Assembly: GCA_009777165.1 (NCBI GenBank)
Contig: WRML01000001.1
Span: 1-51,558 of the forward strand
Length of the DNA stretch: 51,558 bases
From: Kiritimatiellota bacterium
Lineage (GTDB): Bacteria; Verrucomicrobiota; Kiritimatiellia; RFP12; UBA1067
Reading direction: 5' to 3'
Shown here: positions 13,749 to 47,441 of the stretch, piece after piece
How the letters are laid out: the number at the start of each line of letters is the position of its first letter
Numbering within the stretch: the stretch's first letter is position 1
Notes under the pieces: model-generated
Told to the model about the DNA's origin: nothing
Database searches by the model: none
Seen by the model: the letters and a program-made list of their open reading frames with translations, nothing else
Translations under genes and position numbers: made by a program

Positions 13749-13818
13749 TGAATATAGAGCGAAATCACGTTAAAAGCACACCGCGACAATATCCCGTTAG
13801 GGATGGTTCTTTCGAAGT
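13749..13818 (+). repeat. left terminal inverted repeat of the prophage
   Basis: TGAATATAGAGCGAAATCACGTTAAAAGCACACCGCGACAATATCCCGTTAGGGATGGTTCTTTCG aligns with the reverse complement of 45304..45373 (about 80 percent identity by eye, one 2-nt indel). Confidence 0.8.
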
Positions 13819-24890: not shown

Positions 24891-24968
24891 GAGTTTTTAG
24901 TTTCCGGTTTCTCCTTTCCAGCGCTCGACAGCCATCGACTGCATTCGACTGCCATCGAAAACTGGGAA
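24891..24968. repeat. junction low-complexity element
   Basis: GAGTTTTTAGTTTCCGGTTTC units, then CGACAGCCATCGACTGCATTCGACTGCCATCGAAA core. Confidence 0.75.
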
Positions 24969-25430
24969 CTAACCATTCTCCACTTTTTTCGGCGGCGGCG
25001 CGAAAAGCGTCGTGAGCGCCTCAAAGCTGATGTTGTAGATGAGCGCGCCTTTCTCCAGCACCGCGCTGGAGATGTCCTTGAACACGACGGTCTCGCCGTC
25101 CGGCAGACGGGCGAGGTTGAGCGCGACGGCGATGTGCCGCGCCGCCTCGCCGGCGGTGCGCATGTTCGCGCGCCCCCGGTTCATCAGCGGGCGCTCCGAA
25201 ACCTGCACGGCGATGTCCGCGCGCGCGGTGACGTTGCGGCTGTCGCTGCTCTCGGCCCGCGCGGACGGCACCGCCACGACCGCGACGATGCCCAGCCGCG
25301 CCAGGGCGCCCTTGACGGTGTCGTCGATGTCGCCCTTGTCCTCGCAGTGGATCTCCACGCCGGCGACGGCGAGGAACTCGTCCCTTGCAAGGATGTTGCA
25401 GACCTCCTGATGGATGGTTTCAAAAGCCAT
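24969..25430 (-). CDS. tail completion / head-tail joining protein candidate
   Basis: 153 aa. Starts 1 nt after the stop of the upstream gene. Called by position only. Confidence 0.4.
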   Translation of the reverse strand: MAFETIHQEVCNILARDEFLAVAGVEIHCEDKGDIDDTVKGALARLGIVAVVAVPSARAESSDSRNVTARADIAVQVSERPLMNRGRANMRTAGEAARHIAVALNLARLPDGETVVFKDISSAVLEKGALIYNISFEALTTLFAPPPKKVENG

Positions 25431-25431
25431 G

Positions 25432-26016
25432 TCAATCTCCTTTTTTCTCCAGTGCCCTCCGGATCACGCCGAGGATGCCCTCCTTCGCCGCGCCGCCCAT
25501 CGCCGCGTCGGTGGGCAGGAGGCTCCTGTCCTGCGGGATCAGCACCGACTTCGCGAGGATGTAGAGCGGCACCACCTGGCCCGGCCCCGGCGAGTAGGCG
25601 AGGTAGTCCGCGCCCTTCGGGCGGAAGATGACGCGCCCCTCAGCCCTGAGCTGGGCGACGCGCTTGCCGTATGAGATCGCGTGGACGGGGATCGTCAGCG
25701 CCTTGGCGATGACGGGGCGGACCGTGAACGCGCCGAACACGCGCCTGAACCCCGGCGAGCGGATCACCACGTGGGCGTCGAACCCCCGCGACCCGACGGC
25801 CACGGACTTCTCCGCCTCCCGCAGGTGCCCGGTCGGCTCCGCGCCGAGCCGCTGCGCGGTCTTGTGGTGCGTGCGCGCGGTCAGGCGCAGGTGCGCCGTG
25901 ACCAGCTTGCGCACGCCGTTCGCCGCGGCCCGGAAGAGCCGCGCCCGCGCGCTGCGGGACAGCACCGCCATCAGCGCGTCCAGGCGCGGGGTGCTCGGTG
26001 TCGTGTTAATCTGCAT
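25432..26016 (-). CDS. virion morphogenesis / head-tail adaptor candidate (Mu gpG / HK97 gp10-like)
   Basis: 194 aa, ATG behind the A7-TCGGAG-T7 motif. TGHLREAEKSVAVGSRGFDAHVVI pattern. Confidence 0.4.
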   Translation of the reverse strand: MQINTTPSTPRLDALMAVLSRSARARLFRAAANGVRKLVTAHLRLTARTHHKTAQRLGAEPTGHLREAEKSVAVGSRGFDAHVVIRSPGFRRVFGAFTVRPVIAKALTIPVHAISYGKRVAQLRAEGRVIFRPKGADYLAYSPGPGQVVPLYILAKSVLIPQDRSLLPTDAAMGGAAKEGILGVIRRALEKKGD

Positions 26017-44994: not shown

Positions 44995-45050
44995 CGAGAG
45001 CGCGGCAATGCGCCGGACCCTTTAGGCGGGCCCGCGTTTGCAGAAACAAA

Positions 45051-45130
45051 GAAACCGTCCTGCATGATACTTGCGGGGCGGTTTTTTTTCTCAACTGTTT
45101 GATATACCGCGCCTTCAGGCGGTCTTTTTT
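45051..45130 (+). terminator. two tandem rho-independent terminators ending the early arm
   Basis: ACCGTCC...GGGGCGGT followed by T8, then ACCGCGCCTTCAGGCGGT followed by CTTTTTT. Confidence 0.5.
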
Positions 45131-45303
45131 CTCAGGTACGGAAATCCGCCCTTTGTCACCATAAGTCCCTAATATTCAAACGTTTTCCGCCCTTTTCCCA
45201 CTTTTTCACTTCGAATCGTTCAGGACACAGGTGCGACCGATGGGGCACGGGATGCACCTAAAAGAGGCATCCCGATGGGATGCCATGATTTTTTTGCGTT
45301 CTC

Positions 45304-45373
45304 TTCTACCGAAAGAAACATCCCTAACGGGATGTTGTTACGGTATGCTTTAAAAGTGATTTCACTATATGCA
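45304..45373 (-). repeat. right terminal inverted repeat of the prophage
   Basis: CGAAAGAAACATCCCTAACGGGATGTTGTTACGGTATGCTTTAAAAGTGATTTCACTATATGCA ends in CA. It is the inverted partner of 13749..13818. Confidence 0.8.
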
Positions 45374-45738
45374 TGCTCTGTGCGACTCTGCGGTCCTCCG
45401 TGTACCTCTGTGTAACTTTAACTGCATACCCATCTTGTCCCGATGATGACGAGACCCTTCCTAACATCACAACCGTAAAAAGATCCGCCAACCAGATGGC
45501 GGCAGGAGGACAAAAAACTACAATAGAGAAGTAGCCCGGCTTATTGGATGTTCGGCCGGCCTCCTGCCAAGTGTTCCGCTTCCGCTTCGACAGGGCCCGA
45601 ATTAGGGTTTTTACTCCCCTTACTTTCCGTACAGGCCGACAACCTTTTTACCGGGCTAAAACGGAAGCCCCGCGCCCCCGTTTAAGCGCCCCCGTTTAAG
45701 CGGCGTTTCGCGAGCGGCGTTTCGGGGCGTTTCGGGGC

Positions 45739-45767
45739 TTGCCTTCCGGCGGCGGGTGTGGTATGAT
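45739..45767 (+). promoter_or_regulatory. candidate promoter of the CRISPR array
   Basis: TTGCCT (45739..45744), 17-nt spacer, extended -10 TGgTATGAT (45759..45767), 4 nt upstream of the first (truncated) repeat. Confidence 0.45.
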
Positions 45768-45770
45768 GAT

Positions 45771-46328
45771 GTTTTACAGCTGAAAAGCGGTTGAGTCACA
45801 CCCGCATCAAGGGGGTTCAGGACATCCGTTCAGGGTGTAAGTACAGCCGAAAGGCGGTTGAGTCACACTCGGGTCGCGGAGCAGGACGCGGCGGGCGTAG
45901 GTGTAAGTACAGCCGAAAGGCGGTTGAGTCACACTGGTCCGCCTCATGGATCGCCGCCATTTCGTGGTGTAAGCACAGCCGAAAGGCGGTTGAGTCACAC
46001 CCAACCACGCGTTCGGGATTCCTCGGATGTCGGTGTAAGCACAGCCGAAAGGCGGTTGAGTCACACCCGGAGACCGTCACTTTGAACCAGCGGAAGGGTG
46101 TAAGCACAGCCGAAAGGCGGTTGAGTTACAGCCGCCCGTATGCGTATAACCTACGCCTGACAGGTGTAAGCACAGCCGAAAGGCGGTTGAGTTACAGCGC
46201 CCCCTTACTTTTTGACACAAACAAAAAAGGTGTAAGCACAGCCGAAAGGCGGTTGAGTTACAGCTGGGGTTTTATTGGGTTACCGTCTTGTCGAGGGCAC
46301 GGGCACAGCCGGAAGGCGGTTGACGCGC
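45771..46328 (+). CRISPR. orphan CRISPR array with 8 spacers
   Basis: Seven well-conserved 35-nt repeats GGTGTAAG(T/C)ACAGCCGAAAGGCGGTTGAGT(C/T)ACA(C/G) start at 45834, 45900, 45966, 46032, 46097, 46163 and 46228. Degenerate terminal repeats lie at 45771..45801 and 46295..46328. Unique spacers are 30-32 nt and the period is 65-67 nt. Confidence 0.85.
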
Positions 46329-46508
46329 GTTTTGAAGGACAACAGCCATAACCGCTGACCCATACAAGCCAACGGCAACGCCATTGACCCGTACGCCGCA
46401 TACAATACCACCCCCCCCCGGCATGGTTTTGAAAGCGCGAAAAAGGTTTCGCTCGACTTTCACTGCCGTTCGTGATATGGTTCTTTTTTTAAAATCGGGA
46501 GTTATCAG

Positions 46509-47441
46509 ATGATGAAGATGTTTGACTTAAGCGGCAAGAAGGCGCTCGTCACGGGCGCGGCGGTCGGGATCGGGCGGGGTTACGCCGTCGCGCTCGCAAA
46601 GGCAGGGGCGGATGTCGCGATCGTTGACGTGGATGACAAGACGGGGCCAACGACCGCCAAGGAAATTCAGTCCTACGGCAGGGATGCGTTGTTCGTCCGT
46701 TGCGATGTGACGAAAAAGGAAGAGGTCGAGGCGATGGTCGAGGCTGTCGCCCAAAAATTCGGGCGGCTCGACATCGGTGTCAACAACGCCGGGATCGGTA
46801 TCCTGGGCGGTGACGTGGATTTTTCGCTCCAGGACTGGAACAAGGTCATCGGCGTCAACCTGACCGGGATGTATCTGTGCGCGCAGGCTGAGGCGAAGCA
46901 GTTCCTGAAGCAGTCGCCGGTGCAAGGGAAGATTATCAATACGGCCTCCATGTCCGCGCGGATCTGCAACTGCAACGCGTCGTACAACGCATCCAAGGGG
47001 GGGGTGGTCGAGATGACGCGGATGCTCGCTGCGGAATGGGGGACGTACAACATCAACGTCAACTGCATCAGCCCGAGCTACATCCTGTCGCCGATGCATG
47101 CCTCGACACCGCTGGAGGTCCGTGCGCGTATCCGTGAGTTGACGCCGCTCGGGTATGTTCAACGTCCCGAGGATGTGTATGGCCCAGTCGTGTTCCTCGC
47201 GTCGGATGCGGCGAATTACGTCACGGGGCTTGACCTGCTCGTGGACGGCGGTCACACGTTGAATGCGTGGCTCACGCCGCTGGGACGCGCCGTGCCGCCG
47301 CGCGTGTCGCCGGCGGAGGAGACCGTCCAGCTCAAACACGATCTCGCCGCAATGGGATTGCCGTTCGACGACAACGGCATCAACGAGTCCCTGCATCCTG
47401 AAATCGCCGGCGCGTTCAAAGCGGCCTTCGGAATCGGGTAG
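46509..47441 (+). CDS. short-chain dehydrogenase/reductase (SDR)
   Basis: TGAAVGIGRG Rossmann motif and YNASK catalytic motif. Confidence 0.8.
   Translation: MMKMFDLSGKKALVTGAAVGIGRGYAVALAKAGADVAIVDVDDKTGPTTAKEIQSYGRDALFVRCDVTKKEEVEAMVEAVAQKFGRLDIGVNNAGIGILGGDVDFSLQDWNKVIGVNLTGMYLCAQAEAKQFLKQSPVQGKIINTASMSARICNCNASYNASKGGVVEMTRMLAAEWGTYNINVNCISPSYILSPMHASTPLEVRARIRELTPLGYVQRPEDVYGPVVFLASDAANYVTGLDLLVDGGHTLNAWLTPLGRAVPPRVSPAEETVQLKHDLAAMGLPFDDNGINESLHPEIAGAFKAAFGIG

Follow-up and report, generated by a model that had tools for sequence, protein, structure and literature searches.

A stand-alone CRISPR array in a Kiritimatiellota genome, probably serving a reduced type III-B (Cmr) variant encoded elsewhere in the same genome

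The DNA analysed here (the window, 51,558 nucleotides (nt)) is the entire contig C1, WRML01000001.1, of a metagenome-assembled genome (MAG) of a Kiritimatiellota bacterium, GCA_009777165.1, which consists of 389 contigs with a total of 2.45 Mb and is 72% complete. Towards the right end of the window, at 45767–46330 on the + strand, lies a genuine array of clustered regularly interspaced short palindromic repeats (CRISPR), with near-identical direct repeats, regular spacing and unique spacers of uniform length. We consider it probable that this is a stand-alone array of a type III-B (Cmr) variant, placed away from the effector genes, and that the complex it would guide acts by RNA cleavage only. 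So far, the variant is confined to one genus-level clade of Kiritimatiellota. This reading starts from what can be observed directly, namely the array, the repeat family which it shares with Cmr loci, the cas gene content of the genome, the losses of protein motifs and the context of the insertion.

The array consists of nine copies of one unit, which follow each other at 65–67 nt from start to start. Seven of them are good repeats of 35 nt each, GGTGTAAG[T/C]ACAGCCGAAAGGCGGTTGAGT[C/T]ACA[C/G], which begin at 45834, 45900, 45966, 46032, 46097, 46163 and 46229 (R1 to R7) and differ from one another at 1–3 positions. Their variants form ordered blocks, GTAAGT..TCACAC in R1-2, GTAAGC..TCACAC in R3-4 and GTAAGC..TTACAG in R5-7. 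In the body of the array (45802–46295, +), these repeats alternate with eight spacers of 30–32 nt, S1 (45802–45833), S2 (45869–45899), S3 (45935–45965), S4 (46001–46031), S5 (46067–46096), S6 (46132–46162), S7 (46198–46228) and S8 (46264–46295), all unique and all on the + strand (blastn-short against the genome returned full-length matches to the spacers themselves only). A CRISPR array with eight unique 30–32-nt spacers, and with repeats that drift along its length, had been described in the original prediction, made from the letters of the window, and both descriptions hold: the nine copies are regularly spaced, no spacer repeats another, and the drift takes the form of the three blocks. 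The first unit, R0 (45767–45801, +), is 5'-truncated and degenerate, with similarity to the consensus from 45776 only. Its retained part, the 26 nt ACAGCTGAAAAGCGGTTGAGTCACAC at 45776–45801, agrees with the consensus at 24/26 positions and amounts to about three-quarters of a repeat; a truncated first unit behind a promoter-like site had been correctly foreseen, but with 15 nt retained instead of 26. The terminal repeat R8 (GGCACGGGCACAGCCGGAAGGCGGTTGACGCGCGT, 46296–46330, +) is also degenerate, with 60% identity to a 43-nt reference copy (the repeat plus 8 upstream nt). An Rfam scan found neither CRISPR-DR nor any other family above threshold, just weak matches to sRNA-Xcc1 and PAGEV.

This array is not an orphan, because the same MAG carries a complete cmr operon flanked by the same repeat family, and a matching effector module is therefore present elsewhere in the genome. 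Searching the MAG with the repeat core revealed, upstream of cmr2 on contig C154, four degenerate repeats that agree with the array of the window in length class and in their 66-nt period, while one degenerate solo repeat of this family lies ~50 nt past the cmr1 stop codon on contig C38. The intact cmr2-cmr3-cmr4-cmr5-cmr6-cmr1 operon spans these two contigs: the last 55 residues of Cmr1 form the start of C38, the contig ends overlap by 9 nt, and both the join and the order cmr2-3-4-5-6-1-dus were confirmed by a 9051-bp contig of the source assembly (ENA). Cmr4 (186 bits), Cmr5 (35.5) and Cmr6 (94) score above the NCBIfam cut-offs, Pfam assigns Cmr2_N, Cas10 palm2 and Cas_Cmr3 to Cmr2/Cmr3, and Cmr1 is assigned through its 72% identity to a protein of the sister species G001 which itself passes TIGR01894. 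On C1, tblastn with Cmr, Cas1, Cas9 and CARF proteins gave no match anywhere. The contig is free of cas genes over at least 45 kb on the left side of the array and over 5 kb on its right; the genes of the right flank encode an SDR protein, a DeoC-like aldolase and an FGGY kinase. The earlier statement that no cas gene lies nearby was thus correct for the 51.5-kb contig. The label "orphan" had to be given up: the genome-wide search for cas genes and for arrays with the same repeat turned up the cmr operon, the four-repeat mini-array and the solo remnant, and in two relatives the arrays begin 24–70 nt after cmr1.

The first of these relatives is the sister species G001 (WRJS01000007.1, a Kiritimatiellaeota MAG), in which an array of 17 repeats (GGTGTAGTTACAGCCGAAAGGCGGTTAGAACACAC) with spacers of 28–32 nt starts 24 nt after cmr1. 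The other is a third metagenomic lineage, L043, whose Cmr2 is 57% identical and which has six such repeats ~70 nt after cmr1. Repeats of the same family therefore adjoin cmr genes in this MAG (mini-array and remnant), in G001 and in L043, whereas the array of the window is unlinked to the operon. All six cmr open reading frames (ORFs) are open in the three lineages, at 57–77% identity. This type of repeat was found in no other GTDB species representative and in no other JGI metagenome contig, and no spacer is common to the MAG and G001. A comparison of synteny with G001, intended to date the separation of array and cmr genes, found the genes of the two species in scrambled order relative to each other and the MAG too fragmented for a decision. 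Within the G001 Cmr array (L012 1230–2304; G001:C7 ~24896–25970), a terminator-like hairpin, TGGTGCGGGCATTCCTGCCCGCAT.., takes the place of a spacer three times, with altered ends of the flanking repeats, and one pair of spacers consists of diverged duplicates (27/31). Beyond the array, at L012 ~2863, there is another hairpin of similar kind, GTGATGCGGGCATTCCTGCCCGCATC. The same genome has a type II-C locus (L025 7125–13976; G001:C23) with a 1074-aa Cas9 (712 bits, TIGR01865), a Cas1 of type II and an array in which 30-nt spacers separate 36 repeats, each 36 nt long; its 66-nt period agrees with the one seen in the genus's Cmr arrays.

Other genera of the order have 37-nt repeats of the form GTC..CAGCCGAAAGGCG[A/G]TTGAGAC, with spacers of 37–43 nt, and full III-B loci adjoin them, comprising a Cas10/Cmr2 of 868–879 amino acids (aa), Cmr3-6, Cmr1, a CARF protein and Cas1. 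These Kiritimatiellota III-B systems (G010, G047, G051, G252) share with the one studied here the repeat core CAGCCGAAAGGCG[A/G]TTGAG with its GNRA hairpin, the gene order cmr2-3-4-5-6-1 and an array co-oriented with the operon. In contrast to theirs, the repeats in the window (35–36 nt) lack ~7 nt at the 5' end and extend ~4 nt further at the 3' end, the spacers (30–32 nt) are ~10 nt shorter, neither a CARF protein nor an adjacent Cas1 was found, and the main array stands apart from the operon.

A further difference from these relatives concerns Cas10/Cmr2, which has HD and GGDD motifs in their long proteins and measures 485–489 aa in the clade (485 aa in this MAG). Alignment to the relatives and to P. 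furiosus Cmr2 showed that the HD region is deleted, and both palm motifs appear dead, DGD being replaced by RGN and GGDD by SGGD. Among the four closest homologues, the first motif reads RGN, TGD, AGD or AAD in place of DGD, and the second SGGD, RGGE, GGE or RGGD in place of GGDD. More distant short Cmr2 proteins have kept both palm motifs and adjoin CARF-Card1 effectors. Cmr4 retains the context of its N-terminal catalytic Asp (AVDLLVMRE...SSVKG). None of Cas1, Cas9, CARF and Cas6 was found in this 72%-complete MAG, where Cas6 profiles (PF01881, PF10040, TIGR01877) gave no match. Across the order, TIGR01877 matched 0 of 61 genomes and PF01881 none of six (this MAG and five relatives), including genomes with long, active-looking arrays; on these grounds, the order as a whole seems to process its crRNAs independently of Cas6. 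A Cas2-superfamily match on contig C133 was rejected as a CRISPR gene, as it is VapD-like and stands alone in a fatty-acid (fab) cluster; this gene, at C133:4345–4605 between fabD and fabG/acpP, scores as PF09827 and has no CRISPR context.

From these observations we infer the strand, the use of the promoter, the processing enzyme, the length of the handle and the activity of the system. Transcription of the array would follow the + strand and probably start from a promoter of its own at 45739–45767, and each repeat of the transcript would fold into a GNRA-tetraloop hairpin (GCC-GAAA-GGC) enclosed by a looser outer helix between 5' GGUGU and 3' ACAC. A housekeeping RNase would then probably cleave the precursor CRISPR RNA (crRNA) at a conserved G-UU that directly follows the hairpin on its 3' side, a step which we propose because Cas6 was found neither here nor in 60 relatives. 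The cut would leave a repeat-derived 5' handle of ~11–13 nt, as in the Cas6-less III-Bv system of Synechocystis, and the crRNAs would load into the Cmr2-3-4-5-6-1 complex encoded on C154/C38. Because Cas10/Cmr2 has neither the HD domain nor the cyclase residues and Cmr4 has kept its catalytic Asp, this complex probably cleaves complementary RNA only, via Cmr4, and would neither degrade DNA nor signal through cyclic oligoadenylates.

The likely transcript is that of the + strand, in which the repeat part precedes the spacer on the 5' side. The G001 array, the L043 array and the C154 mini-array all run in the direction of the cmr operon, the relatives' repeats to which the repeat is homologous are themselves oriented by their ..TTGAGAC 3' end and by a cas1-proximal leader, and the only promoter-like site in the scanned 1.8 kb is on the + strand. 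This site, TTGCCT-17-TGgTATGAT (45739–45767, +), is a sigma-70-like candidate with 9/12 matches and an extended -10 TG, and was the sole match in a scan of 45000–46800. It is present, yet statistically not distinctive, because chance alone is expected to produce 0.7 such sites in 1.8 kb. A start ~7–9 nt past the -10 box is predicted at 45774–45776, which would make the first base of R0's retained part the exact start of the transcript, so that spacer 1 would still be supplied with a hairpin and a handle. The promoter-like site had been placed correctly in the original prediction, but not its distance of 4 nt to the half-repeat, since similarity to the repeat starts 8 nt after the -10 box. Scanning around the G001 array revealed no promoter-like site, and a site upstream of the C154 mini-array, which had been picked by eye as a promoter, was discarded as it fails the criteria of the scan.

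In the repeat RNA, all 23 distinct variants (100%), drawn from three genomes, can pair the inner hairpin GCC-GNRA-GGC (GCC-GAAA-GGC). For the outer helix, formed between the repeat ends, 63% of the cells compared are paired; its observed covariation score was reached in 7/500 shuffles. Just 3' of the hairpin, G23, T25 and T26 are conserved across the 23 variants and the rest of the 3' arm is variable; the hairpin is followed by GG-UU, and 13 nt separate the stem from the spacer. The stem GCC-GAAA-GGC had been noticed before, together with its form GCT-GAAA-AGC in R0 and the GGAA loop in R8, and all three are present, but the reading of the R0 form as a compensatory change is suggestive and short of proof, because ViennaRNA prefers another register (CAGCCG/CGGUUG) in which the change amounts to a wobble pair and a loop change. 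The 3' end of the repeat is GTTGAGTCACAC and not ..TTGAGAC, and no 8-nt ATTGAAAC-like tag of the Cas6 type is present. An RNase E/G homologue is encoded at C36:892–2163 (found with an E. coli Rne sequence as query). Taken together, the conservation of hairpin and G-UU, the failure to find Cas6 and the RNase E/G homologue point to a model in which a housekeeping RNase cleaves immediately past the hairpin. There is a precedent in Synechocystis sp. PCC 6803, where the III-Bv system CRISPR3, a Cmr system without cas6, relies on RNase E (with RNase J), which leaves handles of 13–14 nt (PMC12464536, describing Behler et al. 2018).

Partial matches of the spacers were found within the MAG, S1 matching C7 (24/27), S2 matching C2 (27/31) and C39 (24/25), and S3 matching C121 (17/17). 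As all of them are antisense to ORFs, a crRNA read from the + strand would pair with the mRNA, as type III RNA targeting requires, which also speaks for this strand. What S2 matches in antisense orientation is the stretch that encodes the motif ARRVLLRDPG(S/A)W in two giant secreted proteins, paralogues of each other (C2:2696–2724, C39:858–882). In 300 genomes of the order, partial spacer matches were to conserved coding motifs only, and in other genera (G006, G055, G121, G206) the only spacer matches fall in this same motif region. The whole array used as query against 50,697 phage records gave no match, nor did an exact search of IMG/VR with S3 and S6. A comparison of the spacers with the adjacent prophage and the genome, proposed along with the original prediction, produced no match in the prophage and, in the genome, no full-length match beyond the spacers themselves.

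Regarding its surroundings, the array is part of a discrete insert of 674 bp (45664–46337, +), composed of GC-rich tandem repeats, the promoter candidate and the array, that is, of the array plus ~100 nt upstream. The insert has GAAG on both sides and interrupts one copy of a four-copy element of ~330 nt that resembles a small RNA (sRNA), from whose three intact paralogous copies it is absent. The distal half of the interrupted copy lies at 45456–45663 (-), with a terminator-like hairpin at 45502–45485, and the promoter-proximal half, recognised by homology to the intact copies, at 46338–46426 (-); in the intact copies (C331:2460–2815, C2:140–510 and C190:1188–1470), the two halves are contiguous. 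Three of the four copies gave weak, sub-threshold matches to sRNA-Xcc1 (RF02221; 25–30 bits), and we regard the element as a candidate family of sRNAs or leaders. In the intact C2 copy, ~255 nt separate a promoter-like site (TTGCCA-18-TGgTATTGT) from an intrinsic terminator. Giant surface proteins, one of >580 aa that is cut off by the contig end and one of 1522 aa, are encoded in the operons which follow the element on C2 and C331. To the left of the insert, at 45228–45370 (no strand assigned), lies a copy of a 143-nt repeat which occurs at 90–100% identity on >100 contigs of the MAG, mostly at contig ends and often with an inverted arm of ~66 nt alongside. It looks like a high-copy element of the MITE type (miniature inverted-repeat transposable element), possibly derived from Mu-like ends.

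Several findings weigh against an RNA-cleaving III-B system. A full-length target was not found for any spacer in the collections searched, the promoter match is no better than chance, and Cmr2 (67) and Cmr3 (45) score below the NCBIfam cut-offs. With a MAG that is 72% complete, Cas6, Cas1-Cas2 or a second effector could sit in unassembled DNA. Moreover, the 3' third of the repeat, the would-be handle, is its least conserved part in related arrays; such variability is unusual for a sequence-recognised 5' tag, so that the arrays could be decaying or be read on the other strand. If decaying, the array and the two mini-arrays would be what is left of a III-B system without adaptation, signalling or nuclease, drifting and conferring no immunity. 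Such a relic, which we hold to be unlikely, would be in line with the failure to find Cas1 and Cas2 (the sole Cas2-superfamily match being the VapD-like gene of the fab cluster), the degeneracy of both terminal repeats, R0 and R8, the duplicated, diverged spacers and the terminator-like hairpins replacing spacers in related arrays, the variable 3' ends of the repeats, and the failure of the searches to find protospacers. Nevertheless, all six cmr ORFs have stayed open in three lineages, at 57–77% identity, and the catalytic Asp of Cmr4 is kept. Within the window, the seven repeats are near-identical and their variants follow each other in ordered blocks, as expected from polarised acquisition, and the hairpin is preserved in every repeat variant.

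The geometry of the array invites a different assignment, to type II (Cas9), of which a 36-nt repeat with a 30-nt spacer is typical; the period is 65–67 nt, and the II-C locus of the sister species, with its 1074-aa cas9, type II cas1 and 36 repeats, has a period of 66. However, the II-C repeat (ACTGGGGCTTGTAGGTTTTTGGATCTTTGATACACT) is unrelated in sequence, tblastn found neither Cas9 nor type II Cas1 in the MAG, a genome-wide search outside the arrays found no anti-repeat or reverse-complement match to the repeat, and the repeat is homologous to Cmr-linked repeats and adjoins cmr1 in the relatives. We therefore rejected this assignment as extremely improbable. Scarcely less improbable is an assembly artefact, in which the array or its position would result from a chimeric join in a repeat-rich MAG. 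The 143-nt repeat lies 400 nt to the left of the array and fragments the assembly, so that C1 could be chimeric at 45228–45370, and the region of the array is built of three repeat families. Yet the halves of the interrupted element are collinear on both sides and meet at a clean GAAG/GAAG junction, a pattern which a chimera would not give, and the right flank continues unbroken into unique metabolic genes; the doubt touches the link to the prophage and not the array itself. A more speculative extension, quite unlikely in our view, is that the Cmr system of the genus is a pure RNA-guided RNA cutter whose arrays are perhaps filled by a co-resident II-C Cas1-Cas2, or which has been turned on host genes. 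Adaptation across classes is suggested by the 30–31-nt spacers found here, where relatives have 37–43 nt, and by the 66-nt period shared with the II-C array of the sister species. Control of host genes is suggested by S1 and S2, which are antisense to diverged host genes, S2 with its matches in paralogues of a giant surface protein, and by the position of the array in a copy of the sRNA-like element which precedes operons of those giant surface proteins.

Among the known systems closest to this one is CRISPR3 of Synechocystis. Both are Cmr systems in which no cas6 was found, both have a stem-loop followed by ~13 nt of single strand up to the spacer, and an RNase E/G homologue is encoded here too. 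The cyanobacterial system belongs to another phylum, is active in interference assays and has arrays which adjoin the cas genes (PMC12464536). Orphan (isolated) arrays resemble the present one in their distance from cas genes, but this genome encodes a matching effector. Subtypes with a degenerate Cas10 are also related in kind: in the Makarova et al. 2020 classification, III-C and III-F reportedly have an inactivated cyclase and III-D is said to be without HD. In each of these, one Cas10 activity is lost and the RAMP backbone is kept, whereas here both Cas10 activities appear lost, within a III-B gene set.

The array itself is ordinary; what is modestly new is the Cmr variant of this clade, Cas6-less, HD-less and cyclase-dead, which combines an altered repeat with short spacers. 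This clade has lost the HD domain, the cyclase residues, a recognisable Cas6 and the adjacent adaptation genes, and has kept six effector genes and several small arrays. If active, it would represent a Cas10-containing type III complex cut back to RNA cleavage, a natural counterpart of the Cas10-less type III-E, and a second lineage, after the cyanobacterial III-Bv, that uses host RNases for the maturation of crRNA. It also teaches that a seemingly orphan array in a fragmented MAG should be compared with the other contigs before it is called so.

The 143-nt repeat copy to the left of the insert contains the inverted repeat which had been taken as the right end of a Mu-like prophage. This terminal repeat, at 45310–45363, pairs with 13761–13814, and its terminus, ...TATATGCA, is at 45373, which puts the array ~400 nt away, as was stated before and as is borne out in the assembly as it stands. 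Because this prophage end is itself a high-copy repeat, neither the lack of a target duplication nor the closeness of the array to the prophage is safe, and the closeness may reflect an assembly join. A prophage end reaching as far as the half-repeat, with the GGCGTTTCGG repeats at 45702–45738, which resemble transposase-binding sites, was considered and rejected, as the terminal repeat ends at 45373. The earlier suggestion that cas genes had been lost by a phage-mediated deletion found no support either, given that cas genes exist in the genome and that the array, which does not abut the phage end, is a discrete insert between collinear halves of the sRNA-like element. A third repeat family begins 3 nt past the prophage terminus, at 45376–45465; its members of 65–90 nt, 78–82% identical, occur in ~8 copies (C128, C42, C28, C336, C115, C6 and C57). 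At C190:1061–1190, a second Mu-like right end directly adjoins another copy of the sRNA-like element on its promoter side; this end matches 45290–45330 of the window exactly over its inner part and differs over its terminal 40 nt.

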